The notes under the pieces are model-generated. The model had not been told where the DNA came from and did not search any database. It saw only the letters and a program-made list of their open reading frames with translations. The translations under genes were made by a program, and so were the position numbers. Shown here in pieces: positions 8,320 through 54,947 of a stretch of DNA of 64,000 bases (its first letter is position 1; the number at the start of each line of letters is the position of its first letter). Where the stretch lies: assembly GCA_045536565.1 (NCBI GenBank), contig JAZSNU010000013.1, positions 64,155-128,154 on the forward strand, in the 5' to 3' direction. Origin of the DNA: Clostridia bacterium (GTDB lineage: Bacteria; Bacillota; Clostridia; TANB77; CAG-465).

Positions 8320-8323
8320 TTAA

Positions 8324-10237: not shown

Positions 10238-10248
10238 TGATATATTGG

Positions 10249-11064
10249 CTATAAATCTCTAATCTTTGATATTTCCATTATTTTCTTAACAATTTTTCTT
10301 ACTTCGCTTATAAAGTAACCATTGTAATCTCTTGCATCTGCTTTCGCATTTTTATAAAAGAAATCAATAGCGGCACCATCGTTACAAGCATCCATAAATA
10401 TATAATTATGCGGAACCGCAAATATTGGTGTTTTTGTTTTATATCTACCTTTTATATTAAACAAATTGCATTTTGATTTATTCTCATAATCACCAATAAC
10501 AATAATTTTGTTTTTATCTTTTATATATTCATTTTTCTCAATTTCTTCAAAAAACTCATCTAATCTTGCAATATCTTGATTAATAGTACATACTAACAAA
10601 TCTGCATCTTCTATTACTTCCCTTACATAATCATTAATAGTTCCTTTTGGCAAATCTACAATTGCAAAATCATAAGCCTCATCTGCTTTTCTAACAATAG
10701 CAGGGAATGTTTCAGATAGAGATACAAATTGTTCTCTTGTTGTTACATTCGTACCATACATAATATCCAATCTTTGCTTTAAAACTGGTTTTGCATAGTT
10801 TCTTATACTTTCAGGTGTTAGTTTGTTGCTATCAACCAATCTAGATAAAGCAGTCATACCTATGTTAGAATTAGAAAATATATTCATATTTTTTAATTGA
10901 TCATAGTCTGTAAAAGAACTCTCAATTTTTCTTGTTTGCCAATGTGCATGTAAAAGTATTGCGTTTATATCTTCTTCCATTCCCATAAGAGTACTTACTG
11001 CTATCGCTGCATGTGTATTTCCTGTCATTCTTGAAACTGGGCTCCAAAACACTATTTTAGGCAT
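10249..11064 (-). CDS. ParA/MinD-like (CpaE/TadZ-like) protein with degenerate P-loop
   Basis: FWSPVSRMTGNT degenerate Walker A; YDFAIVDL; tad context. Confidence 0.7.
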   Translation of the reverse strand: MPKIVFWSPVSRMTGNTHAAIAVSTLMGMEEDINAILLHAHWQTRKIESSFTDYDQLKNMNIFSNSNIGMTALSRLVDSNKLTPESIRNYAKPVLKQRLDIMYGTNVTTREQFVSLSETFPAIVRKADEAYDFAIVDLPKGTINDYVREVIEDADLLVCTINQDIARLDEFFEEIEKNEYIKDKNKIIVIGDYENKSKCNLFNIKGRYKTKTPIFAVPHNYIFMDACNDGAAIDFFYKNAKADARDYNGYFISEVRKIVKKIMEISKIRDL

Positions 11065-11066
11065 AT

Positions 11067-11792
11067 TTATCTATTCCTCCTACTACCGTTTTTTATTTCT
11101 CTTTTCATTTCATTAGATGTTACATCTTTTAAAATATCCGAACTAATTTCTGCAACCAAATTAACAAACATCTTAGTATGCTTCATTATATCAATGATTC
11201 CACTATGTTGTGCCTCTATATCAGCAATTCTATCTTGATCTTCATAATTTAATTCATACATGTTTTCGTTCCATTCAATTGCAAAATTTATTAGTTTATT
11301 TTCATAATAAACTTCACTTGCTCTTGTTATATAATATTTAAATAAAACTTTCGTTAATTCTAACTTCTTATCTAGTGGTTTATATATCATCATTGTTTTA
11401 AGAAGCTCTGAATTTTTAGACATAGAAATATTTGAATATTCTACAAAGAAATATGTTTTACTTATTCCTCTTGCTCTAAAATTTTCATAAGCGACAGGAT
11501 TATCTATATCAAGAAGTATATAATCATATAAAGCTATATTTAACTCTCTTTTGCAAATGTAATTTTCTACATCATGCATATTTTTAAATCCAACTGCAAA
11601 ATCAATAGAATCATATTGGGTAATATACTCTTTTTCCTTAACTGACAAAGAAGGTATTGTGTATTTCATTCTTTCTTCAACAGTTCCATCTATAACTAAA
11701 ACTGTTTTCCCTGTATAATTTATTGCTTTTGCTAGATTTATAACAAAATCCGTTTTATTAACATATCCTGCTAGTGCAATTACTTCTTGCAT
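11067..11792 (-). CDS. Second ParA-like tad accessory protein
   Basis: GYVNKTDFVINLAK..KTVLVIDGT..YDYILLD. Confidence 0.6.
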   Translation of the reverse strand: MQEVIALAGYVNKTDFVINLAKAINYTGKTVLVIDGTVEERMKYTIPSLSVKEKEYITQYDSIDFAVGFKNMHDVENYICKRELNIALYDYILLDIDNPVAYENFRARGISKTYFFVEYSNISMSKNSELLKTMMIYKPLDKKLELTKVLFKYYITRASEVYYENKLINFAIEWNENMYELNYEDQDRIADIEAQHSGIIDIMKHTKMFVNLVAEISSDILKDVTSNEMKREIKNGSRRNR

Positions 11793-11813
11793 TTTATCCT
11801 CTCCTTAATATAA

Positions 11814-13001
11814 TTACTGTCCTAATGTTTGATTTCTTAAAGCTTGTTGTGCTGATATTTGACTAGATAATCCAGAAACTGCTGCTTGATATCCATCTCC
11901 ACTTGCAGTAACGAATTCTGCCATGTTTGTTTCTATCTGCATTCTAATATCGGCACTTAATTTAGCCTTTGCTTCCTCTGCAATATATTTATTGTTTTCC
12001 ATATGTCTTCTTATTATATCGCTTGGTTGATATGTTCTTTCAACCACATCATAAGATTCAATATAATATCTATATTCAATTGCATATTTTAATAATAAGT
12101 CAGTTAAATTATTTGTGAAATTAATATACTCTTGTGTTGTTTCTTCTTTTTTATCATCTTTGTTTTCATCAGCAGAATTTTCAGTATTAATATCTGTCTC
12201 AACATCTTCTTCTACTTCACTTGTTACATCTTTTGCAACTTCATCTGGTACTGATAACGCAACTGTTCCATCTGCAACATCTTTTTCTATTTTTTCTACC
12301 AAGTCTCTTTTGGCTATGTCTGTAATACTAACCTGGTTTCCATCTTCGTCAATAATAAAGTCTCCTACTTTTATTTGTGTTGCTGGATCTACATATCTAA
12401 CACCATAAAGTTCCGAAGCACCTTCTGACAGATACACATCGACAATAGCGCTGTTTAAATAGTATAAGTTTTCTTCATCTAAATACAAGTCAATAGCATT
12501 ACCAGTAATTTTTCTAACTTTTATTTGTGGAATTACAATATACTCTAAACCACTTGCCATTTTCATTTTTATATCTATATATTCACCCTCAACTAATCCT
12601 GATGGTAACTTTACAGATGTTACTTCTTGTATTCTTTCATCAACAGTAACAACTTCATCTCCAAACATACTTCCAACCAATGGTATATTTGCTGGTATAT
12701 TATATTTAGCTATTTTGCCTACTGCTCCATACCCAATAAGATTTGTAGGAGATGAACTAATATGAACTCTTGCAGATGTTAACATATCATCTGTAATTGT
12801 TTCACCTTGAATAACATCTCTATTTAGCATTACAACCTCTGTTGTGTAATTTGCTATATATTCTTCATTTGTCCCCTCTTTATATGAATTTACAACACTA
12901 ATTGACCATATAAGAGTTATTGCAATACCGATTATTCCTATACCTGCGCCAATCAATATTCCGTATATTAATCTCTTTCTTATTTGACTCATTCCTATCA
13001 T
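11814..13001 (-). CDS. SAF-domain CpaB/RcpC-like pilus assembly protein
   Basis: ATG 13001 after GGAGG; TM then VVMLNRDVIQGETITDDML..GKIAKYNIPAN (SAF) and LPSGLVEGEYIDI. Confidence 0.8.
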   Translation of the reverse strand: MIGMSQIRKRLIYGILIGAGIGIIGIAITLIWSISVVNSYKEGTNEEYIANYTTEVVMLNRDVIQGETITDDMLTSARVHISSSPTNLIGYGAVGKIAKYNIPANIPLVGSMFGDEVVTVDERIQEVTSVKLPSGLVEGEYIDIKMKMASGLEYIVIPQIKVRKITGNAIDLYLDEENLYYLNSAIVDVYLSEGASELYGVRYVDPATQIKVGDFIIDEDGNQVSITDIAKRDLVEKIEKDVADGTVALSVPDEVAKDVTSEVEEDVETDINTENSADENKDDKKEETTQEYINFTNNLTDLLLKYAIEYRYYIESYDVVERTYQPSDIIRRHMENNKYIAEEAKAKLSADIRMQIETNMAEFVTASGDGYQAAVSGLSSQISAQQALRNQTLGQ

Positions 13002-13029
13002 ATGTACAACCTCCAATAATTCTCTTAAA

Positions 13030-13058
13030 ATAATATCGTATTTAAGTTGTATTTTCAA
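13030..13058 (-). promoter_or_regulatory. Sigma-A-like promoter of tad operon
   Basis: TTGAAA-17-TATTAT on minus strand. Confidence 0.5.
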
Positions 13059-13099
13059 CACATTTTTTTGAAATAACAATGTCTTTAACTAAAATATAA

Positions 13100-23588: not shown

Positions 23589-24644
23589 CTATTCTTCAAT
23601 ATCTTCTAGTGAATCATCATCTTGTTCTTCCATTTCACCTAAGCTTTTTTCAAAAGCAAGATTGAAATTATCTCTAACCTTCTTTTCAATTTCCTTCATA
23701 ACTTCTGGATTATTTTTCAAATAAGTTTTAGCCGCTTCTCTACCTTGACTAATTTTTTCTCCATTATATGAGAACCAAGCACCCGCTTTATTTACTATAT
23801 CAAGATTTACTGCTAAATCAAGTACGCATCCTTCTGATGAAATACCTTCGCCGTATACTATATCAAATTCTGCTTCTCTAAATGGTGGTGCAACTTTGTT
23901 TTTAACAACTTTAACTTTTGTTCTTGTACCCATAACTTCGCCATTTATTTTTATAGCTTCTTGTTTTCTAACATCTAATCTAACTGATGAATAGAATTTT
24001 AAAGCTCTTCCTCCTGGTGTTGTTTCAGGATTTCCAAACATTATTCCAACTTTTTCTCTCAATTGGTTAATAAATACAGCAACTGTTTTTGATTTAGAAA
24101 GTACACCAGTTAATTTTCTTAAAGCCTGTGACATCAATCTTGCTTGAAGGCCAACATGTGAATCTCCCATTTCACCATCGATTTCTGCTTTTGGAACAAG
24201 TGCTGCAACTGAGTCTACAACAATTATATCAATAGCGCCACTTCTTACAAGTTGTTCTGTTATTTCAAGCGCTTGCTCACCTGTATCTGGTTGAGAAACT
24301 ATTAAATTATCTACATCTACACCTAATTTTTTAGCGTATACCGGGTCTAATGCATGCTCGGCATCAATAAAAGCGGCTACCCCACCTAGTTTTTGTGCTT
24401 CTGCAATCATATGTAATGATACTGTTGTTTTTCCTGACGACTCTGGTCCGAATACTTCAATTACTCTTCCTCTTGGAACTCCACCAATACCTAATGCTAT
24501 ATCCAAACTTAATGCACCAGTAGGAATAGAATCTACATTTACACTTCCTACCTCTCCTAATTTCATTATTGCACCTTTCCCGAAATTCTTTTGAATTTGT
24601 GACATTGCCACATCTAGTGCTTTTTTCTTTTCTTCTGATATCAT
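23589..24644 (-). CDS. recA: Recombinase RecA
   Basis: [33 protein letters not shown]. Confidence 0.99.
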
Positions 24645-24720: not shown

Positions 24721-25021
24721 CACTTTTTTATAATTTTTTTAAATTATACCCAAATTATATATTCTGATATTAAAAAAGTCAATTAAAATCGTATTACAAA
24801 AAAACACACAAAAATTTAAAGCTACATATATCTACATAAAAATTGTAGTAATCATCATAGAATTGTCGAATTTTGTAACACGATTTGTTATTTTTCTACC
24901 CTAAAAGTTTTTACAATAACACACTCCGCTTTTATAATGTATTTATTCTATTTATATATTTTCGAGTGGAGGTGAAATTAATAGATATATAAATAGGTAT
25001 GAAGAAAGGAAGAGAGTTTAT

Positions 25022-25958
25022 ATGAAAAATAATGAAATAATTATATTTGAAAATCAGAATGTTAAATTAGAGGTTAATATGAAGGATGAAACAGTATGGC
25101 TTACCCAAGCACAAATGGCTAGTCTTTTTGGAAAGTCAAAATCAACAATAAACGAGCATATAAAGAACATTTACAGAGAAAATGAACTCGCAGAAAATGA
25201 TACCATGTCTAAATTCGGAAATTCCGAATTTTCTGATAAACCTACTAATTATTATAATTTGGATGTTGTCATATCAGTTGGCTATCGTGTTAAATCACAA
25301 AATGGTATTATATTCAGACGTTGGGCAAACAAAATTCTAAAAGATTATCTATTAAAAGGGTATGCAATTAACCAAAAAAAGATTAGACTATTTAGAAAAA
25401 ACTGTACAACTTATTGATATTGCAAATAGAATAGATGATAGATTAGAAGGAAATGATGCAAAAGAAATACTAAAAGTAATTGCTTCATATTCAAAAGCAC
25501 TTGATTTATTAGATGATTATGATCACAAAACTCTAAAAAGACCTAAGAGCAATATTAATTCCAAACTAATAAATTATGAGGATTGCGTAAATATAATTAA
25601 CACATTAAAGTTTAGTGCAACTGGTAATTTGTTTGGTGTAGAAAGAGACAAAGGATTAGAATCAATAATTAATAATATATATCAAACTTTCGGTGGCAAA
25701 GATATCTATCCGAGTATTGAAGAAAAATCAGCTAACTTTTTATATCTTATAGTTAAAAACCATGTTTTTGTTGATGGTAATAAAAGAATTGCAGCAACTT
25801 TGTTTATTTATTTTTTAAATTTCTATAATATTTTATACAAACAAAATAGACAAGTAATTGATAATAATACTTTGACTGCTTTAACATTGCTTATTGCAGA
25901 ATCTAACCCAAAAGAAAAGAATATAATAATTGACTTAGTAACGAACTTTTTATCATAA
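25022..25958 (+). pseudogene. RhuM-Fic/Doc fusion, frameshifted at A7 run (25374-25380)
   Basis: 5' ORF has RhuM motifs (ETVWLTQ, YNLDVVISVGYRV, FRRWA); 3' ORF in +1 frame has Fic motif HVFVDGNKR. Confidence 0.85.
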
Positions 25959-25984
25959 CATCTTAATTTAATAATTAACTCTTT

Positions 25985-26029
25985 CCATGTGAGGCTGGGC
26001 GTTAATATAAACAGTGCTGCGGGAAATAG
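25985..26029 (+). repeat. Orphan SEC-C-encoding repeat, copy 1 (putative att core)
   Basis: Reads P C E A G R * Y K Q C C G K *, in exact register with PCGSGKKYKQCCGK*. Confidence 0.75.
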
Positions 26030-26086
26030 CAATATTTATAAAGGTTTGAGAGATTTTGATAAACTTCGAAAAATATTAAAAAAGCC

Positions 26087-26110
26087 ATTTAGATAAGTTT
26101 TAGATAAGTT
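26087..26110 (+). repeat. Tandem TTAGATAAG arm-like repeat (left of HD gene)
   Basis: ATTTAGATAAGTTTTAGATAAGTT; direct copy at 26863-26884. Confidence 0.8.
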
Positions 26111-26193
26111 TTTTGGAGCAAAGTATATGAATTTTGCTCCTTTTATTATATAATAATGAAGAAACAAATAGTAAGTTGTAGGGAGAATAGAAT

Positions 26194-26832
26194 ATGCAAA
26201 ATTTAATTAATAAAACGATTGAATATGTAAAAAAGTTTTTTGAAAAGGATTATAGTGGACATGATTTTTATCATACATTAAGAGTATATAATCTGGCTAA
26301 AAGTATTGCCGAATCTGAAAAATGTGATATAGAACTAGTTTGTCTAGGAGCCTTATTACATGACGTGGATGATTACAAATTAATAGGAGAAGAAAAGGAA
26401 CCATTTAATAATCTGAAAAACTTTTTAAAAAACCAGAATTATTCTAATGAAAGAATAGAACAAATATGTCACATTGTTTCTCAAGTCTCATTTAAAGGGA
26501 AAAATATTATACCAGATACGATAGAAGGAAAAATTGTACAAGATGCAGATAGATTAGACGCAATAGGAGCAATTGGTATTGCTAGAACATTTTCATATGG
26601 TGGAAGTTGTAACAGACCTATGCATATTCCTAATGAAAATTATAAAGAAAATATGTCTTCTAAAGAATATTATAAAAATCTTGGTACAAGTATAAATCAT
26701 TTTTATGAAAAATTATTAAAATTAAAAGATTTTATGAATACAGAAACAGCTAAAAATATGGCAATTCATAGGCATGAATACATGCAAGAGTTCTTGCAGG
26801 AATTTTATGATGAATGGGAAGGAAAAATTTAA
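26194..26832 (+). CDS. HD-domain phosphohydrolase (YedJ-like)
   Basis: GHDFYHTLRV, ALLHDVDD, VQDADRLDAIGAIGIARTF, HFYEKLLKL. Confidence 0.92.
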   Translation: MQNLINKTIEYVKKFFEKDYSGHDFYHTLRVYNLAKSIAESEKCDIELVCLGALLHDVDDYKLIGEEKEPFNNLKNFLKNQNYSNERIEQICHIVSQVSFKGKNIIPDTIEGKIVQDADRLDAIGAIGIARTFSYGGSCNRPMHIPNENYKENMSSKEYYKNLGTSINHFYEKLLKLKDFMNTETAKNMAIHRHEYMQEFLQEFYDEWEGKI

Positions 26833-26862
26833 AACAGCGACAAATTACAATTTATAGGTTAT

Positions 26863-26884
26863 ATTTAGATAAGTTTTTAGATAA
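26863..26884 (+). repeat. Tandem TTAGATAA arm-like repeat (right of HD gene)
   Basis: ATTTAGATAAGTTTTTAGATAA. Confidence 0.8.
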
Positions 26885-26967
26885 TTGATTAATACAAAAA
26901 AATAAAAAAGTGAATATTATTACCATAAATATGAAAATTGTTGCTAAAAAAGTGAAAAAACTTCCAA

Positions 26968-27009
26968 TGTGGTTCGGGAAAAAAATATAAGCAATGCTGT
27001 GGAAAGTAA
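26968..27009 (+). repeat. Orphan SEC-C-encoding repeat, copy 2 (intact SecA-like 3' end)
   Basis: TGT GGT TCG GGA AAA AAA TAT AAG CAA TGC TGT GGA AAG TAA = CGSGKKYKQCCGK*; no upstream gene in frame. Confidence 0.9.
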
Positions 27010-27060
27010 AATAAAGCCCATAAAATAAGGGCTTTTCTAATACAAAAATTTAGAAGATAT

Positions 27061-27112
27061 AAATTAAATACGATTTTGGATACGTTCTACATGTATCTAA
27101 TTTGTATCTAAA
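27061..27112. repeat. TAGATAC-type arm-like repeats (left of peptidase E gene)
   Basis: 27061-27088 matches 28047-28074 at 22/28 in direct orientation; 27091-27112 is an inverted TTAGATACAAATTAGATACA pair. Confidence 0.7.
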
Positions 27113-27222
27113 ATGAAAATAATGTACTAAAAACACTGAAAAATAAAGCATTTTTGAGAAAAGTGACCAATGTCCCGTGCGTAGTAGGCATTTTGTGATA
27201 TAATTGATAAGAAGGTGATAAT

Positions 27223-28032
27223 ATGTCAAGAAAAATAGTAGCAATAGGTGGAGGAAAAAATGGAAGATTATGTTCTGATGGAACATATGATCCTTATGAA
27301 ACAGGTCCAATGGACCAAGAAATTATAAGATTAACAGGTAAAGAACAACCACATTTTCTATTTATCGGACATTCCGTTCCATTAGAAGGACAAGAGTTTT
27401 ATTTCAATACTATGAGAAATATTTATGAGAAAATGTATGGCTGTGAATGTAGAGATATTAAAAGTAGTGAATTAAATGATTTAGACGAAGTACAAAAGAA
27501 AGTTGACTGGGCAGATATCATATATGAGGGTGGAGGCAATACGCTGGATATGATAAAATTGTGGAAAGAAACAGGTTTTGACAAAATTTTAAGAACTGCT
27601 TGGGAAAACGGTAAAGTAATGTGCGGGGTATCCGCAGGAGCAAATTGTTGGTTTAAAGAATGCTCAAGTGATTCTTTACAAATTAAATATGGACCAGACC
27701 AACCATTAATTGCTATGGATTGTTTAGGTTTTATAGATGGATTATTTGTTCCTCATTGTGATGCTCCAGGAAGATATGAATCAGTTAAAGAATTATTAAA
27801 GACAAGAGATACATTTAGTTTATCGATGTCAAACTGTACTGCATTAGAAATTATTGATGATGAATATAGATTGATAACAAGTGATTCTTCAGATTATGGA
27901 ATCGAGGCATATGGATTAAAAACATATTGGAATGATGGGGAATATATTGAAGAGCGAATAGAAGTTACAAAAGAATTTAGAAGTTTACCAGATTTATTGT
28001 CAAAATCTGCAATTAAAAAAGTCTCAAAATAA
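27223..28032 (+). CDS. Peptidase E (S51, class I glutamine amidotransferase-like)
   Basis: IVAIGGG, ADIIYEGGGNT, GVSAGA nucleophile elbow, VPH. Confidence 0.9.
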   Translation: MSRKIVAIGGGKNGRLCSDGTYDPYETGPMDQEIIRLTGKEQPHFLFIGHSVPLEGQEFYFNTMRNIYEKMYGCECRDIKSSELNDLDEVQKKVDWADIIYEGGGNTLDMIKLWKETGFDKILRTAWENGKVMCGVSAGANCWFKECSSDSLQIKYGPDQPLIAMDCLGFIDGLFVPHCDAPGRYESVKELLKTRDTFSLSMSNCTALEIIDDEYRLITSDSSDYGIEAYGLKTYWNDGEYIEERIEVTKEFRSLPDLLSKSAIKKVSK

Positions 28033-28046
28033 AGTTTTTCACCTAT

Positions 28047-28074
28047 AAATTAGATACAAATTTAAATACATTCT
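28047..28074 (+). repeat. TAGATAC-type arm-like repeat (right of peptidase E gene)
   Basis: AAATTAGATACAAATTTAAATACATTCT. Confidence 0.7.
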
Positions 28075-28173
28075 GCTAGCAAAACAAAGTGTATTGTAGT
28101 GAAAATCAGTGCAAAAATGTGCGATTATAAGCATAAAAATGCAGTAAAGTGTAGTAGAATGAGGCAAACTGCA

Positions 28174-28212
28174 AGTCCATGTGGCAGTGCTAAAAAATAT
28201 AAATTATGTTTT
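28174..28212 (+). repeat. Orphan SEC-C-encoding repeat, copy 3
   Basis: Reads SPCGSAKKYKLCF. Confidence 0.75.
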
Positions 28213-28220
28213 AATAATAC

Positions 28221-28255
28221 AAAAAATTTCACCTATATAACGGGTGAAATTTTTT
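28221..28255. terminator. Bidirectional terminator after bofA
   Basis: AAAAAATTTCACC/GGTGAAATTTTTT hairpin. Confidence 0.7.
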
Positions 28256-28259
28256 TACA

Positions 28260-28511
28260 TTATAATATAAATTGTAATATTGCAAGTATTACTACACCTG
28301 GTATTCCAAGAAGTCCAACAACGAGTGCTGATACCCAGTTTATCGGAATATTAAAGTCAAAATAGCCACCTATGTAATTTACTATAAATAGTAACACTGC
28401 ACCTATACCTATGTTTATTAATATTTTAATTATTTTTTTGATTGGCCAAGCAAGTATTTTTAATATTATAAACACTGCAACTACTGCACCTATAAAAACT
28501 AAATATTGCAT
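28260..28511 (-). CDS. bofA: Pro-sigmaK processing inhibitor BofA
   Basis: IGAVLLFIVN..IPINWVSALVVGLLGIPG. Confidence 0.9.
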   Translation of the reverse strand: MQYLVFIGAVVAVFIILKILAWPIKKIIKILINIGIGAVLLFIVNYIGGYFDFNIPINWVSALVVGLLGIPGVVILAILQFIL

Positions 28512-30324: not shown

Positions 30325-31365
30325 TTATTTTTCATTAAAATAGTCTGTTCTCATTGAATATCTCACTTTTTCCATAGTTTCTTTTGTTATTTTTCTTGCT
30401 TTTTCAGTACCTTTTCTTAATATTTCTTTTACAATTTCAGGATGCTCTTCGTAATATTTTCTTCTTTCTTTTATAGGTTTTAAGTATTTTATTATATTGT
30501 CTGCTAGTTCTTTTTTACAAGCAACACATCCTCTTTCACCTTTTCTACATTCAGAACATATTGTTTCTAAATTGTCCTCACTGAATAATTTGTGATAATA
30601 TCCTATCATGCATACATCTGGATTAGCAGGATCGTCTTTACGGATTTTAGAAGTATCTGTTATTGCTCCTCTAACCTTTTCTCTAATTGTATCCTCATCA
30701 TCTGCTAAATATATTGCATTACCCAAACTTTTACCCATTTTTGTTCCGCCATCTAATCCTTTAATTCTTTTGTGCTCACTTAGTAGATATTCTGGCTCCT
30801 TCATAGTTTCGCCATATAGCGAATTAAATTTTCTTACTATTTCCTTAGTTTGTTCAATTAATGGAAGTTGATCTTCACCAACCGGTACTAAATCTGCATT
30901 AAATGCAGTTATATCTGCTGCCTGACTTACTGGATATCCTAAAAAACCATAAGTTACAGATTCACCACTATTTCCAAACAATTCTTTTTTCTGAGCTATT
31001 TCTGTCTTTATTGTAGGATTTCTTTGAAGTCTAGAAACAGTAACAAGATTTGAATAGAAAACTGTAAGTTCTGCTATCTCTGGTACCATTGATTGAACAA
31101 CAAATGTACATTTTTCTGGATCAAGTCCAGCTGCTAAATTATCCATAGTTGTTTCTAATATATTTTCTCTTATCTTTTCTGGATTATTAAAATTATCTGT
31201 TAAAGCTTGCACATCTGCAACTAATATATATGTTTCATATTCATCTTGTAATTTTACTCTATTTTGAAGCGACCCAAAGTAATGACCAATATGTAATTTC
31301 CCTGTTGGTCTGTCACCTGTTAAAATTCTCTTTTTATTTTTTTCTAATTCTTTCATTTTATTCAT
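30325..31365 (-). CDS. trpS: Tryptophan--tRNA ligase
   Basis: TGDRPTGKLHIGH, VPVGEDQ, KMGKS. Confidence 0.97.
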   Translation of the reverse strand: MNKMKELEKNKKRILTGDRPTGKLHIGHYFGSLQNRVKLQDEYETYILVADVQALTDNFNNPEKIRENILETTMDNLAAGLDPEKCTFVVQSMVPEIAELTVFYSNLVTVSRLQRNPTIKTEIAQKKELFGNSGESVTYGFLGYPVSQAADITAFNADLVPVGEDQLPLIEQTKEIVRKFNSLYGETMKEPEYLLSEHKRIKGLDGGTKMGKSLGNAIYLADDEDTIREKVRGAITDTSKIRKDDPANPDVCMIGYYHKLFSEDNLETICSECRKGERGCVACKKELADNIIKYLKPIKERRKYYEEHPEIVKEILRKGTEKARKITKETMEKVRYSMRTDYFNEK

Positions 31366-31659
31366 CTCCTATTTAATATATATTTATTCTAAATTTATAT
31401 ATTTAATTTTGCCAACATAAAACTATATCATAGAAGATTTTTAATCTACTTATTTCTTGTATTGTCATACTATCTCTCCATTATATATACTATATTAAAA
31501 TTATACCTTTTTTTACATAAATATTCAATAGTTAATTTTAAAAGATACTACAAAATATTGTATTTTATCCTATTCCATGTTATACTAATCAAAATTTATA
31601 TTTTACTTTTTGATATTATATATATCATATCATTTAATTAAATGAAAGGGCGTGTTTTT

Positions 31660-31848
31660 ATGAATTGGTTAGTTGGTCTAGGAGTAGCACTATATGCTTT
31701 ATCTGGTTATCTTTGTTTCATTTCTATGTGGGATAAAGGAATAACACAAAAAACAAGCGACACTTTGGCTAATGTTGCTTTCACACTATATATAACAGCA
31801 TCTGTGCTAATAGCAATAAATTGTATTTTCTTTTATTGGCTTGATTAA
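31660..31848 (+). CDS. Small 2-TM membrane protein
   Basis: GAAAGGG RBS; hydrophobic 62 aa. Confidence 0.6.
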   Translation: MNWLVGLGVALYALSGYLCFISMWDKGITQKTSDTLANVAFTLYITASVLIAINCIFFYWLD

Positions 31849-33021: not shown

Positions 33022-33279
33022 TTAAGCTTCTGGATATACACTTACTTTTTTCTTGTCTCTACCTTTTCTTTCAAATTTAACTACTCCGTCAACAAGAGAA
33101 AATAATGTATCATCTTTACCTTTTCCAACATTTGTTCCTGGATGTATTTTAGTACCTCTTTGTCTTACTAATATATTTCCTGCTAGAACAAATTGTCCGT
33201 CTGCTCTTTTGGCTCCAAGTCTTTTAGCCTCACTATCTCTACCGTTCTTAGTAGAACCGCCACCTTTCTTATGTGCCAT
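33022..33279 (-). CDS. rpmA: 50S ribosomal protein L27
   Basis: [21 protein letters not shown]. Confidence 0.99.
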
Positions 33280-33314
33280 TTATATTCCCTCCTTATTTAT
33301 ATGTTCAATTTTTA

Positions 33315-33680
33315 TTATTCAGCTGCTTCTGTTGTTGCTTCCGCTTCAACTTTTTTTGCTCTTGGTGCAGCTACTGCGATTTTCTCGATTTGTACTTTTG
33401 TATAAGATTGTCTATGTCCTCTTCTTTTTCTTTCATTCTTTTTAGCTTTATACTTAAATACTAAAATCTTTTTACCTTTTCCATGACCTACAACTGTTGC
33501 TGTTACTTTTGCACCTTTTACAGTTGGTGTTCCAACAGTAGTTTTCTTGTCATCAGATACTAGAAGAACTTCACTGAAAGTAACTTTTTTTCCTTCTTCT
33601 TCCTCTAATCTCTCCATGAAAACAATATCGCCTTCTTGTACTTTGTATTGTTTTCCACATGCTTCAATTATTGCGTACAT
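33315..33680 (-). CDS. rplU: 50S ribosomal protein L21
   Basis: [18 protein letters not shown]. Confidence 0.99.
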
Positions 33681-35144: not shown

Positions 35145-37679
35145 TTGCTAGAAAAAATATTGAATTTTTTTAAGATAAAAAAACATAACGAATTTATGAC
35201 TAAATTATTTGGAATTATATCAGCAGTGAGCGTACTTTATATTATTGGACTTATATTTGCATTTTTGTTTGGTGATGGAATGATAGGAAATCCTATTTCG
35301 CCATATATATTTGCAATATTAATAGGATGTCCTGCGCTATTTTTTTCTTACCTTGTTAATACCAAATTTGATATAGTCAAAACAGATAAAGGTAAAATCC
35401 GTTGGTTTATGATTACTCTTGTTACAATGGCTACAATAATTGGTTTTATGGTTATAACTTGGATAAATGAATCAATATGGTCAGCATTAAGGTTGCTTCC
35501 AAATTACGATAATGTTAAAAGTGCTTATCCTGGTGTATTTTCACCTGCTATAAAAACAATCTGTCTAGTTATACCATTTGTATGCATATTTAAATTAATA
35601 GATTATTTAACAATGATATTAAGAGAAGAAGATTATACAAAAGGTATTGCTGGTTTTTGTGGACTTTCAGTTTCTAGTTCTTCTGGAAATACAGGGCCTT
35701 TTGCATGTGATACTGTAATTTGTAGGAATCCAAGTACTGCTGAAGAAGTTGTAGTTCCCGAAAAGAAAAGAATGGAAGCAACACTAGTACAAGGTGCTAC
35801 TGGTACTGGTAAAACAGCAACTGTTCTTTTACCTATGAGTGCAAGAGATATTGAAAAGAAATACTTCTTTAGAGAATATTCTAAAAAACTAGCATATAGT
35901 TTACTTAAAAAAGGTGTTGCATATATAGAAGGACCTTTTACTAACGAATATATAAACAGAAATTTCAGACTAGATTTTGTAAAACCAAAAAAAGGATTAG
36001 AAAGAGAATTTTACGATACTCTTGATAAAGTTATTCTTTATAGAGATAAAACAACTGGCGAAGTTGTGTACAGAAACCTTGGTATTACAGTTGTAGAAAA
36101 CGATGGAAGCTATGTTAATAACTTTAAAATGGTGGCTAACAACTATGACTTTGATGTATGTATAATTGACCCAATATCACCAGAAACAACTTTAAGTATA
36201 AACCCATTTGCTATTGAGGATCCTGCAAAATGTGCATCGATTATAGCGGATGTTTTAAAATCAATGCAACAAAGTGAAGGTGGTAAAGAAGAAACATTCT
36301 TCGCACAAGTAACTCTTGATGCATTCCAAAACTTAGCAATACTATTAAAAGAAATGTTCCCTATTCTTCATAATGGCGAAATGCCATCACTAGAAGATAT
36401 GTTAAAATTGTTATATAACTTTGATGCAGTTGAAGAAATGGTAGAAGATATGAAAAAGATACCTGAACTTGAACAAAAATACAAACTTCTTATTTCATAC
36501 TTTGAGAAGAACTTCTACAAACCATCATTAAACATTAATGGATATGAAATACCTGGTACAAGAGGTAGCGGTAGAAAAGATACAGAAAAATTCCTATATG
36601 GTGCTATAACTCAACTTAACAACTTGTTAAGACACCCTGGTTTAAAGAAAGCGCTATGTGGTAAAACAAATGTAATAAACTTCACAGAAGCGATTGAGAG
36701 TGGTAAATTAATTACTGCATGTTCTAGAAAAGGTGAACTTGGTATTATACAATCTAAGGCGTTTGGTATGTTCTTTATATTACAATTCCAAGATGCAGTA
36801 TTAAGAAGAAAAGGAAATGAAGATTCTCGTATTCCTCACTTCTTATACATAGATGAGTTCCCTGAATACATAAACAAAGAAATGGATGTAATGTTTACAC
36901 TATTTAGAAAATATAGATGTGGTGTTACAATCGCTATTCAAAACTTATCACAACTTGATAAAAACAACACTTCATATTACAGACAAACTGTTCTTGCCAA
37001 CACAAAAACTCAAATAGTATTCGGCGATACAGTTCCAGAAGATAGTGACTATTGGAATAAAGCTTTCGGACAAGAAAAGAAAGTTGATAAAGACTCATCA
37101 TTCGATCCTTCATCTGGTGATGTTAAGAGAAAAATGACTATCAAGGTTAAGGATAAAGAAAGATTTAAAGTTCATAAAATACAAGAAAACAAATTTGGTA
37201 GTATATATTATAAAACAAAAAATTCAAAAGGAAATTCAGTATTTGGTGAAGGTAAAGTTTCTTTCTTGGACGATAAATACAAGCAAAAACATCCAGCATA
37301 TGAATACAACTTTGAAAAATTTATGGTAGTAAAACCAATTGATTCAGATTTTAAAACACCTAGTGATATTAACGATAATAACGGACCAGTAATTGAAGAT
37401 GATGATAGTTATATTTTTGGAACAAATATAGCTGTAAATGCCAAAAAAGAAAATAATAATACATCAAATAGTTCTGAAAAAGAAAGTCCTAAATTAATAA
37501 CTGAATTTAATTTTGATGATACTAGCGACTTCGACATTGTAATAGATACTGGTACTAATCCAGAGGGACCAACATTAGAAAACTCTAATTTAGATGGCGG
37601 ACCTATAACAGAGGCTTACGAGCCACCAGTAATTGATATTATAAACGATGATGATACTGGTATGGAAGATGATAAATAA
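35145..37679 (+). CDS. VirD4/TraD-like type IV coupling ATPase
   Basis: N-terminal TMs; Walker A GATGTGKT; FLYIDEF; RKYRCGVTIAIQNLSQL; acidic tail. Confidence 0.88.
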   Translation: MLEKILNFFKIKKHNEFMTKLFGIISAVSVLYIIGLIFAFLFGDGMIGNPISPYIFAILIGCPALFFSYLVNTKFDIVKTDKGKIRWFMITLVTMATIIGFMVITWINESIWSALRLLPNYDNVKSAYPGVFSPAIKTICLVIPFVCIFKLIDYLTMILREEDYTKGIAGFCGLSVSSSSGNTGPFACDTVICRNPSTAEEVVVPEKKRMEATLVQGATGTGKTATVLLPMSARDIEKKYFFREYSKKLAYSLLKKGVAYIEGPFTNEYINRNFRLDFVKPKKGLEREFYDTLDKVILYRDKTTGEVVYRNLGITVVENDGSYVNNFKMVANNYDFDVCIIDPISPETTLSINPFAIEDPAKCASIIADVLKSMQQSEGGKEETFFAQVTLDAFQNLAILLKEMFPILHNGEMPSLEDMLKLLYNFDAVEEMVEDMKKIPELEQKYKLLISYFEKNFYKPSLNINGYEIPGTRGSGRKDTEKFLYGAITQLNNLLRHPGLKKALCGKTNVINFTEAIESGKLITACSRKGELGIIQSKAFGMFFILQFQDAVLRRKGNEDSRIPHFLYIDEFPEYINKEMDVMFTLFRKYRCGVTIAIQNLSQLDKNNTSYYRQTVLANTKTQIVFGDTVPEDSDYWNKAFGQEKKVDKDSSFDPSSGDVKRKMTIKVKDKERFKVHKIQENKFGSIYYKTKNSKGNSVFGEGKVSFLDDKYKQKHPAYEYNFEKFMVVKPIDSDFKTPSDINDNNGPVIEDDDSYIFGTNIAVNAKKENNNTSNSSEKESPKLITEFNFDDTSDFDIVIDTGTNPEGPTLENSNLDGGPITEAYEPPVIDIINDDDTGMEDDK

Positions 37680-37823: not shown

Positions 37824-38717
37824 ATGTATCCTGAATATTCATATTATAGTTATACAAATGATTGCTTTAATATACCAGTTACATTCCCACCTCAACATCA
37901 AGACATACAGCCTGGAATGGAATATTTAATGAATCCTAAACCAATTTTTGATAATCCTTATTACATACCCAGCGGAAAATTAAAAGGTAAAGTTGCTATT
38001 ATAACTGGCGGCGATAGTGGTATTGGTAGAGCGGTTTCTTTGCTTTTTGCTAAAGAAGGTGCTTTTGTTATAATCGTATATTTAAACGAAGAAAAAGATG
38101 CTAAACACACAGAAGCCATTATACACAGTTATGGCGGTAAATGTATGCTTATTCAAAAAGATATACGAAATGAAAAAAATTGCGCGGATATAGTAAATGA
38201 AGTTATTAACAAAATTGGAAAAATTGACATTTTAGTTAATAACGCAGCTGTACAATTTGTTCAAGAAAACATATTAGATATTTCAGAAGAACAGCTAAAA
38301 GATACATTTGAAACTAATGTGTTCTCATATTTTTATTTAACCAAGGCTGTACTTCCACATTTAAAAGAAAACTCTTGTATTATTAATACAACATCAATTA
38401 CCGCTTTTAATGGTAAAAAGAATTTAATAGATTATTCTGCTAGTAAAGGCGCTGTTACAGTATTTACTAAATCATTATCTCTTTCCTTAGTTGATAAGAA
38501 AATAAGGGTAAATGCCGTAGCCCCTGGACCTATATGGACACCTCTTACTCCTGCGTCTTTTAGCGCTGAGGAAGTTGCTAGATTCGGGCTTGATGTCCCT
38601 ATGAGAAGAGCTGGGCAACCGTTTGAACTTGCACCTACTTATTTATATCTAGCATGTGATGATTCTAGATATGTAACTGGTCAAGTATTACATGTAAATG
38701 GAGGAAGCATTGTTTAG
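37824..38717 (+). CDS. Short-chain dehydrogenase/reductase (YhdF-like)
   Basis: TGGDSGIG, NNAA, YSASK, NAVAPGPIWTP. Confidence 0.95.
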   Translation: MYPEYSYYSYTNDCFNIPVTFPPQHQDIQPGMEYLMNPKPIFDNPYYIPSGKLKGKVAIITGGDSGIGRAVSLLFAKEGAFVIIVYLNEEKDAKHTEAIIHSYGGKCMLIQKDIRNEKNCADIVNEVINKIGKIDILVNNAAVQFVQENILDISEEQLKDTFETNVFSYFYLTKAVLPHLKENSCIINTTSITAFNGKKNLIDYSASKGAVTVFTKSLSLSLVDKKIRVNAVAPGPIWTPLTPASFSAEEVARFGLDVPMRRAGQPFELAPTYLYLACDDSRYVTGQVLHVNGGSIV

Positions 38718-38743: not shown

Positions 38744-39781
38744 TTATTCAACTATAACATTAGGACTAAATGTTTTCTTAACTATCTTACTTGCTTTATC
38801 ATCATCTGAGCCTGGTTTTAAGATATCCATTTCTTTTTGTACTAATTTATATTTGTTATTTTCTTTATCAAATTCAAACATGCTAATTGTTTTTTCAAGT
38901 GATGATTCTAATTGTTCTAAATCAGTTGTAAAGTATAATTCTTCATCCTTTAAAACAATTCCAACTTTCTTTATTATTCTAAATATTTCTGCATTATGAT
39001 TTACATCCTCACCTACAAATACTAGTTTTGGTGGAGCATAAAATCCTGCATCATTTTTAGCAAAGTTCTCATAGAAATCACTATATAATTGTAATTTTTC
39101 TGCAAGCATTGTTTGCCACTCTTCATTTCTTCTTACTACTTCAAATATAACATCAAATTCTTCTTTATCTTGTTTTAATTTAACAGTTCCACCTGTTGGT
39201 TTAAATTTAACATTGTATTTTTTAGCAAGCAATAATAAATTAGGATTTGCTTCTTCAAAAGCCCCAACTTTTTGCATATATGCAATTACAATTTGGTTTC
39301 CTGCTAATTTTCTTTTTAATGCATATGCTGGTTTTGTATTATCCGTTGGTTGCCAATTTGTTACAACATTTCTTTGTTTTAATATATATGTAGCTATTTT
39401 ATCAAGTGCATATGCTCTGTATGAGCTTTTTCCGCTTTCTGTTTGGAAGAAGTATCTAGCCAATACTTTTGATTTAGTAAGATCTTCTAACCATTTTGCT
39501 ACTTTATCTTGCTTTTTCTCTTCTTCTATATGGTCTAATTTGCCTCTAAAATCTAATACTTGTGTTACTTGTCTAGAAGTTACAAAGCCAAATTCGTTTA
39601 CTACTTCTAGTGCTTTGATATGGTCTTCTGAGATATATCCCATATCCATTTTAAAAACTACTTGATTAATTGATGCAAAACCTTCTTTACCATCAAATAC
39701 TTTAATTTCATTTGGTCTCACAGCAAATGGTGAAACTCTTGTTTTTACTTCTTTATCATTTATCATATTAATTTCCTCCAT
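38744..39781 (-). CDS. Replication-relaxation (Replic_Relax)-like protein, degenerate
   Basis: wHTH-like LEVVNEFGFVTSRQV..LEDLTK..YAL; PD-(D/E)XK-like KPTG..FEVVR..KLQLY. Confidence 0.6.
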   Translation of the reverse strand: MEEINMINDKEVKTRVSPFAVRPNEIKVFDGKEGFASINQVVFKMDMGYISEDHIKALEVVNEFGFVTSRQVTQVLDFRGKLDHIEEEKKQDKVAKWLEDLTKSKVLARYFFQTESGKSSYRAYALDKIATYILKQRNVVTNWQPTDNTKPAYALKRKLAGNQIVIAYMQKVGAFEEANPNLLLLAKKYNVKFKPTGGTVKLKQDKEEFDVIFEVVRRNEEWQTMLAEKLQLYSDFYENFAKNDAGFYAPPKLVFVGEDVNHNAEIFRIIKKVGIVLKDEELYFTTDLEQLESSLEKTISMFEFDKENNKYKLVQKEMDILKPGSDDDKASKIVKKTFSPNVIVE

Positions 39782-42345: not shown

Positions 42346-45300
42346 TTACTTAGGATTAACTAACCAATAATGGTACATTCCTTTACATGCCTGGTCAAAA
42401 TCATACCACCCGGATTTTAATCCTGTATTAACAGTCGAAACATAAACCTCCACCTTAGAGCCATTTTGTCGTACATCCAACATAGCCATACAGTGCTGTT
42501 TCCAGCTCTTAAATGCCGGTGGTTTCAGACTATAAAACATAACTGCATTTCCACCTAACAAATGATCTAATATTATTTGCTTATCTTTAGATAAATTACT
42601 AACAGTCTCAATATCAGTATTGGTGTACTTTGCCACGAGTTGCCAAGTATTACTTAAATTCACACCATCTGTTGGCGTTATCTCTGGATGACCATAACCA
42701 GATACAACGGTAGCACTTGCAGTTACCCAACAGCCGGAATTTCCCATATAAGCAGAAATACATGATATATATTGACTTGCCCAAGGACCTTTATCTTGAA
42801 CATACTCTATATATGTTCTTCCACTACTTGAATGGAATACTCCTGAATATCCCTGAGATATATCTCCGTCCTCTGTAAAGGAATCACCCATTAAATATAA
42901 CCTTGAAGATTTATATGAATAAGTATTATATGTAACCGTGGCTTTATCTATTTCGTCATAATTATCAACTTGATTGCCAGATGCATCTTGTATAACATAA
43001 TATTGTAATGGGTCAACTACACTACCTTTATAATACATTTTATAATGTAAATATAATTCTGTATCATCAGCATGAGCACCTGTTTTACCAACTTTACCTA
43101 TTTTTTGTCCTTTTGTTACTGGGTCACCCTCATTAACTGATATTACTGATAAACAACCATAATGTGTTTTGAAATTACCATCTTCTGTCTTTATTTCAAT
43201 GTACGCATAACTGCTTTCATCTGAAACCTGTTTAATTTTATACACATTTCCTGAATGAGTTGCATATACATCAGTTCCAATAGTTAGCTCCTCATCACTA
43301 TCATACATTTTATTACTTCCGTTATATATGTCTATACCATCATGATTTCCAGAATATCCATAAGCACTTCCATACATTCTATAAATCTTAGCAGTATCAC
43401 CAGTAGTACTTAGTGGCCATCCAAAACCACCTTCTGGAAGATTTACTATTTGTAAATTACTAGAATTTAATGTTGCGCCTGTTTTTTGATACCATTGTTC
43501 TATTTGATAATATGCAAAATACATATCATCATATGAATATTTAGTAGTTCCCCCACCTATTACACCCGTACTTGTACTAGATGATGTTGTTCCAGATGTT
43601 GTGCTAGATGCTTCTATTTTTTCAATAGGATATTCTATTTCTCTTCCCGATAATTTTTCGTAAGCTGCTTTTGCACATGCAAGTCTAACATCATCTCGAG
43701 CAGCTGACGGCAAACATCTTTCCCAACCTTTTCTAAAAGCCAAGGTTGCTTCTTCTAGCGTTCCGGTTCTAAAAGTTTCATCATAACCAGGTGTCCATTG
43801 ATATTTAGCATGTGGTAGATATCTTGCATTCCAATCGGTTTCCATACATAAAAATTGTATTTGGATATCTAAATCTTCCCAACTTTTTCCTTGACTATTA
43901 GCAAATCTTTTTAAATCTACACTTCTATCATCCCATTGGCAAAGACCTATTGCTTGTCCTCCATCATATGCTTTTGTATAATACCCTGATTCTTGACCAA
44001 TATTTCCTAGTATTGCAGCTGCTTGAATCTCTGTATATCCCCACGATCTAAGGCCATCCCATATTCTTTCGATAGTCTCTTTATATGTTCCATTATATGC
44101 TTGGTCAAACTTATTTGTACCAAAACCTAATATACCACCGATACCACCAATATCAACCCCTAATGTATCTTGGTACCATTCTATTCTTGATATTTTCCTT
44201 CCTAAATCTTCCATTTGTTCTTCTGTATAATATGAAACCTTGTAATCATCCACTTCACTTGAAACAAGTTCTAATCTTTCATCCCAATATTCATTAACTG
44301 TTTGTTCTCCAATACCTCTACCCGTAATAGTAATATCTCCTTCATCAGTACTATTTGGTTGATTTCCTTCATTAATTGGAACAATATTATATTCTCTATC
44401 TATAACTTCGTAAAAACTTCCTGCGTATGTTAATTCGGGTTGTGTTGGTGCAGAAACTTCTTTCCTACTAACAGCTACTTGTTTTACCAATGGATCACCA
44501 CTTGAATCTGTTGCTATTACATATGGCTCATCTACTGCTGTTATTTCGTATGTTGTAACTGAGCCTGATTTTGTAGCTCTACTAGATAATGTTTTTACAC
44601 CAGTAGGATGATCCTTAGTATTAATCCCTGTCATGTGAGGTGGATATGTCGTTGTAGTAGTAGTACAATTTCCTTTATCATCACAACTTTCTACAACAAC
44701 TTCTTTATATTTATGACACATCATGTAATACTCGTATTTAGTTGTCTTTGCTAGTCTTTTTAATCTGAATAGTGACACTTCTACCGGATGATACATATTA
44801 TCCATAATACTATCAACAAAATCGTCATCTTGTGTATCAATATATATAGTATATGGTATTATCCATTTTTGCATATATGGTTCAATCATATCAACCATAG
44901 TTCTTGCTGCTTTGTTTTCACCACCTTGTGACTCAACATCAACATTATAACTTTTTAAACTAGGCATTTTTAACATTGTGTCTTTATTATTATCATCTTT
45001 AACTGTATAGTTTTTGTCATTAATTGTTTCACTAACTAAATAACCAGAACCGTCCGAAACCATCTTATTAGGATCATTTTTATACGCTGAATAGCTATTG
45101 AATTTCTGATATTCAGCATACGAATAGCCTACGCTTAAATCTGTTGTTTGCCACTTTACTCCATCATTAAAATTATCAATTTCTGCCATTAAGTATTTTT
45201 TAACATTATTTAAACTAACTGCAACATCTTTATCCTGCTGTTTTAAAGAATCATATGTTTCACCATCTTCTAATAATTCTTCTGTACCATCTGTTGCGCC

Positions 45301-53654: not shown

Positions 53655-54380
53655 CTAACTCAGTACTCCTTGCCCAATACTATATACTAATGTAATTACT
53701 TTGAATGTACAATACACTAAAACTATTCCTAACGCTACCGGAACTAATTGTTTTTTTACATCCGCTCTTGTTTCAGCAGGTGATAACATATATTTTAACC
53801 CTAGTAGAACTATACCCAAAATAGCGCATACATTTGCTATTGTGTTTACAGTCGAATACACATTACCGGCAAATGTATTATAGCTAGTTCCTCCACCTAA
53901 TGCTCCAGTCATAAAACTCTTAGATAAATCTCTTACAGATTGTGCTAAATAGAAAAACACAACACCTAGCACATAGTTAGGCAAACTTGATTTTATATCC
54001 GCCTTCCCCTCAATACCAGAATATATATACTTTAAACCTAGCGCAATGGTAACAACGAATATAACTACATTTCCGATTGCAAATATAGTACCAATTATAT
54101 CTAAACCACCTGTACCATTACTTATTATACCTGATAATGCTGCACCAACAGGTTTTTGTAATTCCTTTTGGCAATATTGACATTTATGATTACTAACAGG
54201 ATTTAGTTGATTACATTCTTTACACTCAACATACTTTCCGATACTCGGATCTGTAACATCAACAAAATCGCTTGCTTGGCCAAAAACATCGTTCAAAAAA
54301 CTAGAAGCATACAAATCGCTACTAAAAACTGTAAGTAATACATATATAGCAACTATTATAATCCCTTTTTTCATATTCAA
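53655..54380 (-). CDS. Tandem two-domain TrbC/VirB2-like pilin with zinc ribbon
   Basis: Two GLKY..E.KAD.K units; CKEC..CQYC. Confidence 0.75.
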   Translation of the reverse strand: MNMKKGIIIVAIYVLLTVFSSDLYASSFLNDVFGQASDFVDVTDPSIGKYVECKECNQLNPVSNHKCQYCQKELQKPVGAALSGIISNGTGGLDIIGTIFAIGNVVIFVVTIALGLKYIYSGIEGKADIKSSLPNYVLGVVFFYLAQSVRDLSKSFMTGALGGGTSYNTFAGNVYSTVNTIANVCAILGIVLLGLKYMLSPAETRADVKKQLVPVALGIVLVYCTFKVITLVYSIGQGVLS

Positions 54381-54506
54381 ATCACAATGCGCAAACGCAC
54401 ATTATGTCCTCCTTTCTAATTTGTCTATTTATATTATACATAAATAAAAAAATATTGCAATACAAAATTTCTCTGTTTGCAATATTTTATATATTTAAAT
54501 TTTATA

Positions 54507-54878: not shown

Positions 54879-54947
54879 AAAAAATTCCTCCTTATTATAA
54901 CATTATTATACACTATTTTTTTATTTTTACAATATATTTATCATATT

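Follow-up and report, generated by a model that had tools for sequence, protein, structure and literature searches.

What leaves three short pieces of SEC-C coding DNA, each without a gene of its own, around two enzyme genes next to recA in a member of the Clostridia? The question is posed by a 64,000-nucleotide stretch of contig JAZSNU010000013.1 (assembly GCA_045536565.1, positions 64,155 to 128,154), the whole of which is referred to here as the window and numbered from its first letter. Three tails resembling the zinc-finger end of SEC-C proteins, designated c1, c2 and c3, lie on its plus strand; c1 and c2 enclose a gene for an HD phosphohydrolase, and c2 and c3 enclose a gene for a peptidase of family S51. 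The explanation tentatively favored below is that the two intervals, E1 and E2, are miniature, non-autonomous integrative elements, similar to cis-mobilizable elements (CIMEs), that were inserted in tandem into one degenerate site.

The SEC-C tails and the repeats that flank the enzyme genes

All three tails have the same orientation and no other is found in the window. The first, c1 (25985-26029), reads PCEAGR*YKQCCGK* (asterisks are stop codons), with a decayed left half and an intact right half. The best copy is c2 (26965-27009), which reads QCGSGKKYKQCCGK; its core at 26968-27009 is CGSGKKYKQCCGK, with NFQ just before. The third, c3 (28174-28221), reads SPCGSAKKYKLCFNNT, with the core SPCGSAKKYKLCF at 28174-28212; its left half is nearly intact, and its right half is decayed and has lost the stop codon. 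The in-frame stop of c1, a Cys-to-Phe change and the lost stop are the visible decay of c1 and c3. The Pfam SEC-C profile (PF02810) has 19 positions and a gathering cut-off of 20.4 bits. When the tails are read through, with X at the stops, they score 16.6 (c1), 22.9 (c2) and 19.1 bits (c3), c2 alone passing the cut-off; each aligns from profile position 6 or 7 to position 19, the end of the profile, and none has the first Cys of the Cys-x-Cys pair. A loose SEC-C pattern matches three times in the window and not once in 100 shuffles. Stricter patterns return c1 to c3 plus two chance look-alikes (at 21677 and 54549), and 80 related loci, amounting to 1,322,906 bases, contain a single chance match. 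The three SEC-C tails are more than chance.

A first-pass annotation of this DNA had described the tails as orphans, and they read as it claimed: no open reading frame (ORF) is joined to any of them. Stop codons stand 2-4 codons upstream of c1 and c2 (2 codons for c1), and the frame of c3 runs for 100 codons from stop to stop, through a terminator and into antisense bofA. The spacing from Cys codon to Cys codon is 980 bp between c1 and c2 and 1212 bp between c2 and c3, which bears out the units of about 1.0 kb (HD) and 1.2 kb (peptidase) in the same annotation, the cargo peptidase being of family S51. The HD gene, the cargo of E1 (26194..26832, +), is complete and encodes 212 amino acids (Pfam HD, 1.6e-13; NCBIfam PRK10119, 4.2e-31); 120 homologues among the matches listed are mostly of 212-214 residues (range 167-336) and contain PF01966 only. 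The cargo of E2 (27223..28032, +) encodes a 269-residue Peptidase S51 or class-I glutamine-amidotransferase-like protein (Pfam Peptidase_S51, 2.1e-36), and 120 of its homologues among the matches listed contain PF03575 only.

Similarity among the tails is confined to about 45 nt with sharp ends. Alignments of their flanks do not score above shuffled sequences; for the stretches that precede c2 and c3, an equal or higher score is reached by 111 of 500 shuffles. Over 45 nt, c1 and c2 share 29 identical positions and differ by seven synonymous codon differences. Their right halves encode the same YKQCCGK-stop with six synonymous and no non-synonymous nucleotide differences, an outcome found in 0 of 200,000 random sets of six changes, and the Ser codon is TCG in c2 and AGT in c3. 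Because the differences between the right halves of c1 and c2 are all synonymous and the Ser codons differ, the tails must have evolved as translated gene ends, diverging in separate lineages in the manner of the surrogate ends borne by integrative elements, and are not copies of one another.

Between the tails, the two enzyme genes are bracketed by repeats. On the plus strand the order is c1, 60 nt, the doublet of site A, terminator T1, the HD gene, the doublet of site B, 103 nt and c2; from c2 onward it is terminator T2, the palindrome of site C, the S51 gene, the doublet of site D, 130 nt, c3 and terminator T3. Site A (26089..26108, +), whose first base follows the c1 stop by 60 nt, is TTAGATAAG repeated at an 11-bp spacing. 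Site B (26865..26884, +) pairs TTAGATAAG with TTAGATAA at a 12-bp spacing, 103 nt before the Cys codon of c2, and site D (28050..28069, +) pairs TTAGATAC with TTAAATAC, again at 12 bp, 130 nt before the Cys codon of c3. Site C (27055..27111) is built around a 55-nt imperfect palindrome (27055-27109; -15.1 kcal/mol, z -4.7) that contains TTAGATAC-type 8-mers, two on the plus strand (27064, 27078) and two on the minus strand (27093, 27104). The doubled direct repeats reported by the first-pass annotation are real and specific to each unit, save that the site it gave at 27061 is this palindrome with two copies on either strand. The doublet type is TTAGATAAG around the HD gene and TTAGATAC around the S51 gene. 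Since the repeat type follows the cargo gene and not the tail between genes, units centered on the genes (E1, 980 bp; E2, 1212 bp) are favored over a repeated intergenic module.

In the 64 kb, three exact matches to the 13-mer TTAGATAAGTTTT are found (26089, 26100 and 26865), at sites A and B only, and two to the 12-mer TTAGATACAAAT, one at 27100 (-) and one at 28050 (+), which are confined to sites C and D. With up to two mismatches allowed there is no enrichment of either (13 occurrences of TTAGATAAGTTTT versus 13.5 expected, and 35 of TTAGATACAAAT versus 34.9). Doublets of T[TA]A[GA]ATA[AC] at 10-12 bp spacing number four in the window, all of them within 26089-28069, whereas 200 shuffles average 0.44 and never exceed 3; shortening the motif to TAGATA[AC] brings in one more, at 40387. 

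A terminator hairpin stands within 3-90 nt past each tail, as at a real gene end. T1 (26115..26140, +), between site A and the HD gene, is a terminator-like hairpin followed by a T-run (-13.4 kcal/mol, z -3.6). T2 (27013..27035, +) is also a hairpin with a T-run (-10.2 kcal/mol, z -2.0) and starts 3 nt past the stop of c2, and T3 (28221..28255) is a bidirectional terminator hairpin shared with convergent bofA (-13.9 kcal/mol, z -6.6). Of the three, a simple terminator scan calls T1 only.

A proposed history of the locus and its rivals

On the favored explanation, the region would be the scar of two successive site-specific integrations at one site, in the style of the tyrosine integrases of lambda and of elements that are both integrative and conjugative (ICEs). 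E1 (about 980 bp; site A, T1, HD gene, site B) would lie just downstream of a RhuM/Fic pseudogene and head to tail with E2 (about 1212 bp; T2, site C, S51 gene, site D). Each element would have carried an attP-like site whose core served as the surrogate last 14 or so codons and stop of a SEC-C-ending gene, with arm-type doublets about 100-130 nt upstream and about 55-60 nt downstream of that core. Sites B and D are the proposed P arms of E1 and E2, and sites A and C the proposed P' arms. The tail c1 would then be an attL-type junction (host-left joined to E1-right), c2 a hybrid of the attR of E1 and the attL of E2 (E1-left joined to E2-right), and c3 an attR-type junction (E2-left joined to host-right), crossover having perhaps occurred near the AATATAA common to the tails. 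The entry site itself may already have been a degenerate SEC-C tail, which is the proposed reason that no parent gene is present, and each element would have brought an intact spare SEC-C gene end. As neither unit encodes a recombinase, E1 and E2 would be either non-autonomous, moved in trans by an integrase encoded elsewhere, or fossils. What the sequences show is the layout of the parts, the restriction of similarity to the tails, conservation of the coding kind, the contrast between intact and decayed halves and the lack of the islet in two relatives; that recombination took place, that the doublets act as arms, that crossover fell near AATATAA and that anything is mobile today are inferences.

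The distribution of decay among the tails is consistent with this assignment of junctions. Residues matching c2 number 2 of 7 in the left half of c1 and 8 of 8 in its right half, and 5 of 7 in the left half of c3 and 3 of 8 in its right half. Agreement with c2 thus amounts to 13 of 15 residues in the halves that adjoin a doublet and to 5 of 15 in the outermost pair (Fisher p = 0.008); intact halves on the doublet side and decayed halves outermost are the pattern expected of an attL, an attR/attL hybrid and an attR.

Related genomes offer a second view of the locus. The tails and their cargo belong to a lineage-specific islet of 3.4 kb (24815..28250) that extends from the recA promoter region to the bofA terminator; its genes are all on the plus strand, and it is flanked by recA (23589-24644, -) and bofA (28260-28511, -; Pfam BofA, 6.3e-23). 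A genome scan anchored on Obg identified three close species, L001 to L003 (Obg 86-87% identical, all other matches at most 60%). The comparison of the interval rests on L001 and L003, as the L002 contig ends before it. The gene order in both is obg, a hypothetical gene, bofA, the interval, recA, recX, PNP and scpA, and the interval holds a single galE (332 and 331 aa), with no RhuM/Fic, HD, S51 or SEC-C DNA. Alignment with the two relatives breaks off in the recA promoter region, at about 24815, and resumes at about 28250, past the terminator that the islet and bofA have in common. Of the two breakpoints only the right one (28213-28250) adjoins a SEC-C copy, namely c3. Removal of E1 and E2 would leave RhuM/Fic, T3 and convergent bofA, an order that mirrors galE, terminator and bofA in the relatives, and RhuM/Fic followed by T3 facing bofA is plausibly the ancestral arrangement. 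The recA-bofA interval as such is a replacement hot spot: its counterparts, at 12185-13270 of L001 and 12205-13400 of L003, hold galE, and the window lacks the gene there.

It is important to emphasize that a number of observations weigh against the proposal of two tandem integrations. The left breakpoint, at about 24815, is 1.17 kb from c1 and unrelated to any copy, and L001 and L003 have galE in place of a SEC-C site or an empty att site. No tyrosine or serine recombinase is encoded among the 62 window ORFs of at least 80 aa (NCBIfam, Pfam). No SEC-C gene body lies upstream of c1, where the RhuM/Fic pseudogene ends 27 nt before the tail. The two units are not built identically: site A is upstream of T1, but site C is downstream of T2. 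The longest run common to all three tails is only 7 nt, the AATATAA mentioned above, in AT-rich DNA (the window is 28.6% G+C), and the split into halves is a post hoc test whose dividing point was picked after the data had been viewed. The case comprises a single locus with two units, and neither a second unit, nor the arm motif, nor an orphan tail was found in plasmid or phage collections. Lastly, a hint of horizontal transfer from protein cluster sizes is weak. In favor of the proposal, counterparts on other contigs are 92-96% (HD) and 87-95% (S51) identical, a 95% one of S51 being encoded on 8 contigs of up to 374 kb, and in the nearest species found Obg is 86-87%, PNP 67-73% and BofA 75% identical; Obg, PNP and BofA are singleton clusters, but so is RecA despite relatives that are 95-96% identical, which is what weakens the hint. 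The mechanism put forward in the first-pass annotation survives these observations in part: the evidence from tails and doublets points to recombination junctions, and neither a recombinase among the window ORFs of at least 80 aa nor the body of a SEC-C gene upstream of c1 was found.

The collection searches can be summarized further. Alignment of the islet (blastn) to phage and plasmid collections returned RhuM and HD coding DNA only. With c2 as the tblastn query, the six phage records examined all contained the SEC-C ends of long ORFs (112-862 aa), a P2-like E. coli phage record among the matches including the whole neighboring yecA gene; plasmid matches, among those listed, were mostly annotated SEC-C genes, some being without annotation. 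No S51 or HD homologue above 51% identity was found in the plasmid collection. On SEC-C DNA as an integration target, the literature searched, judged by titles and the beginnings of abstracts, held nothing relevant; passages of one paper (PMC11381338) concern an antiphage protein. The possibility that the tails are an RNA element was rejected: nothing in Rfam reaches its gathering score anywhere in the window (below that score there is only IS009, with E = 0.088, inside the HD gene), and no tRNA or transfer-messenger RNA (tmRNA) was found. Nor do the units have the combination by which an insertion sequence or a miniature inverted-repeat transposable element is recognized, namely terminal inverted repeats, target-site duplication and a transposase. 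E2 is bracketed by inverted repeats of about 20 bp (27092-27113 and 28037-58), E1 by direct repeats only, no target-site duplication is seen at either, and the sole transposase in the window is that of an ISL3 element at 4146-5327.

Were the junction assignments true, E1 and E2, each with one metabolic gene in a full attP-like site, would rank with the smallest integrative units seen. Their target, the SEC-C zinc-finger tail, would be a class of DNA not met as an integration site in the literature searched, and tandem accretion would be able to build cassette arrays outside integrons in gut Clostridia. An orphan SEC-C tail together with TTAGATA(A/C) doublets would then be a search key for the cognate integrase and for more cassettes. 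A bolder form of the idea takes E1 and E2 to be native, recombinase-less cassettes of about 1 kb, each a single gene with a complete attP (two arms, and a core doubling as a spare SEC-C end), which a tyrosine integrase moves in trans and which stack at the 3' ends of SEC-C genes, in effect a Gram-positive, integron-like form of gene capture with a protein-coding core; this must be considered doubtful.

Among the other explanations, pseudogene debris holds up best, unlikely as it is. Three separate SEC-C genes would once have been interspersed with the HD and S51 genes and have lost all but their final codons by deletion, what is left being retained perhaps for useful terminators, the doublets being regulatory or due to chance, and the region would be an ordinary decaying islet at a variable spot by recA. 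The visible decay of c1 and c3, the terminator abutting each tail, the synonymous divergence (which implies once-functional coding sequence) and the lack of a recombinase among the window ORFs all suit this account, as does a second pseudogene in the islet. The latter, RhuM/Fic (25022..25958, +), is split into overlapping ORFs at 25022-25417 and 25362-25958, with the frame change within 25362-25417 (Pfam Virulence_RhuM, 3.1e-19; Fic, 5.6e-12), and both parts are singletons in the protein collection. Debris does not readily explain why every remnant runs from profile position 6 or 7 to the stop, why a perfect tail such as c2 persists amid frames full of stops, or why decay is found only in the two outer halves. 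No gene body is detectable: the flanks are dissimilar, and a search among proteins of 28-91 aa gave no homologue of the 52 residues encoded in the frame before c3. Nor does debris account for doublets that are specific to each unit and set at regular distances.

The tails might also mark a patchwork of acquired fragments, joined by homology-facilitated or microhomology recombination at the conserved SEC-C stretch with no dedicated recombinase, each fragment beginning or finishing within the SEC-C gene of some donor and the doublets being operators that arrived with the cargo. An islet that relatives lack, in place of their galE, fits such a history, and so does the absence of any integrase among the window ORFs; the synonymous differences would be those between orthologues of different donors, and the exact runs common to the tails (7-11 nt) are of microhomology size. 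The account nevertheless requires a SEC-C gene end on both sides of each cargo gene in the donor, and it predicts neither the same doublet type on both sides of the cargo nor the regular distances from doublet to core. Site A, moreover, lies upstream of terminator T1, which is no promoter position for the HD gene. A patchwork of this kind is judged improbable.

Two further possibilities concern translation of the tails. That they are lost C-terminal extensions of the genes upstream was rejected: a SEC-C motif is present in 0 of 122 HD, 0 of 125 S51 and 0 of 150 Fic/RhuM homologues (0 of 397 in all), seven stops intervene between the HD gene and c2 and three between the S51 gene and c3, and a 344-aa RhuM/Fic homologue from a Legionella plasmid ends at about the same point without a SEC-C tail. 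Very improbable is that the tails are present or recent genes for small SEC-C peptides (about 25-45 aa) that share transcription or regulation with the upstream enzymes, with the doublets as regulator sites: an ATG at 26931 does open MKIVAKKVKKLP, one base out of the c2 frame, the c3 frame is open for 36 codons upstream, and c2 and c3 are in frame with the starts of the HD and S51 genes, but neither start is preceded by a ribosome-binding site, the regions upstream of c2 and c3 have no significant similarity, all three are without the first Cys of the Cys-x-Cys pair, and the homologue counts and intervening stops just given apply here too, while the apparent agreement of frame in three of three drops to two of three after the RhuM frameshift (c1 is out of frame with the Fic part), which chance would give about a quarter of the time. 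Small SEC-C ORFs starting with MKI(V/S)AK were likewise tried as candidates and rejected, their upstream similarity being not above shuffles. 

The wider window

The window carries germination, SpoIIP and BofA genes, from which it follows that the host is a spore-forming member of the Clostridia. A block at 35145-58808 resembles a conjugative element and has no integrase in the window (NCBIfam, Pfam). It includes genes for a VirD4-like coupling protein (35145-37679), a Replic_Relax protein (38744-39781), a 1280-aa lysozyme/M23 protein (42346-46188), a VirB4-like ATPase (49830-51812), three TrbC/VirB2-pilin-like proteins (53655-55307), an Rpn-family nuclease (56169-57050), SSB and TraX. An SDR oxidoreductase gene within the block (37824-38717) has seven members in its 90% cluster, more than every core gene looked up, and this cluster size fits carriage on a mobile element.

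At the opposite end of the window, 764-2701 encodes a 645-aa protein with the ALK/LTK glycine-rich domain (PF12810, 2e-35), which seems an unexpected family for a Clostridia genome. Five co-oriented genes at 6259-13079 have no family match apart from a P-loop/NACHT-like ATPase (8324-10237), adjoin the ISL3 transposase gene and may form a defense-type island. Beyond the islet, rpmA (33022-33279, -) and rplU (33315-33680, -) are overlapped by a 130-aa ORF (33053-33445, +) that is their antisense shadow, and the 92-97% "conservation" of this ORF in relatives is explained thereby. A scan at Rfam gathering scores gave, for 30325-31700, neither a T-box nor another Rfam leader ahead of trpS, and it gave no leader of the ribosomal-protein type in the vicinity of rplU.

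Comparison with known mobile elements

The first-pass annotation had likened the region to an integron, and in its outline the comparison has some appeal: small, mostly single-gene, non-autonomous units follow one another in the same orientation, each bounded by a proposed recombination site. The likeness fails in the particulars. No intI, attI or Pc (the integron cassette promoter) is present in the 64 kb (62 ORFs of at least 80 aa; NCBIfam, Pfam), and the boundary is a coding tail with unrelated flanks in place of an attC palindrome, site C alone being palindromic and sites A, B and D direct doublets. Each unit, furthermore, has its own terminator and apparently its own promoter, and there are but two units. 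Expressions such as "integron-like array", "mobilised in trans" and secA as the target would be extrapolations from one locus and two units.

Other recombinase-less modules occur in series. Both the pdif/Xer modules of Acinetobacter plasmids and the integrative mobile elements exploiting Xer recombination (IMEXs) are thought to be moved in trans by the host recombinase. The pdif modules have 28-bp XerC/XerD sites, made of inverted half-sites, as their boundaries; sites A, B and D are, in contrast, direct doublets, and what the boundaries of E1 and E2 have in common is the SEC-C coding tail. The attP sites of lambda and mycobacteriophage L5, which are used by heterobivalent tyrosine integrases, consist of a short core and, at roughly -100 to -130 and +55 to +85, paired direct-repeat arms distinct from the core. 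The doublets at about -100 to -130 and +55 to +80 from the SEC-C core bear some resemblance to that plan, but no integrase, Xis or IHF partner has been identified, and site C is palindromic, unlike simple arm sites. As single-enzyme units of about 1 kb, E1 and E2 are also far smaller than described CIMEs.

Repeated use of one conserved gene is documented for the ssrA-specific islands of Dehalococcoides, which (PMC3146451) are of about 12 kb, target the tmRNA gene and have an integration module in 16 of 31 cases. In common with the present locus, one conserved gene is targeted repeatedly and the history of the cargo differs from that of the integration module; E1 and E2 differ from the islands in having no integration module and in a target that is protein-coding tail DNA.

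A closer parallel comes from CIMEs. As set out in a review that covers ICESt1-type elements (PMC5704250), CIMEs have lost or lack the genes for integration and transfer and have kept attL and attR, and an incoming element can integrate into an att site of a resident one, a process described there as tandem accretion. Measured against that description, the present locus differs in having no intact target gene by attL, in an entry site that looks degenerate, and in the lack from the 64-kb window of a cognate integrase of an ICE or an integrative and mobilizable element. It agrees with the description in its direct att-like repeats that comprise a gene 3' end, three co-oriented tails, each with a stop or its relic, at distances of 980 and 1212 bp, and in its lack of integration and transfer genes, the HD gene being the sole gene of E1 and the S51 gene that of E2. 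The closest known kind is the accretion in tandem, at a target gene's 3' end, of CIMEs and other integrative elements.

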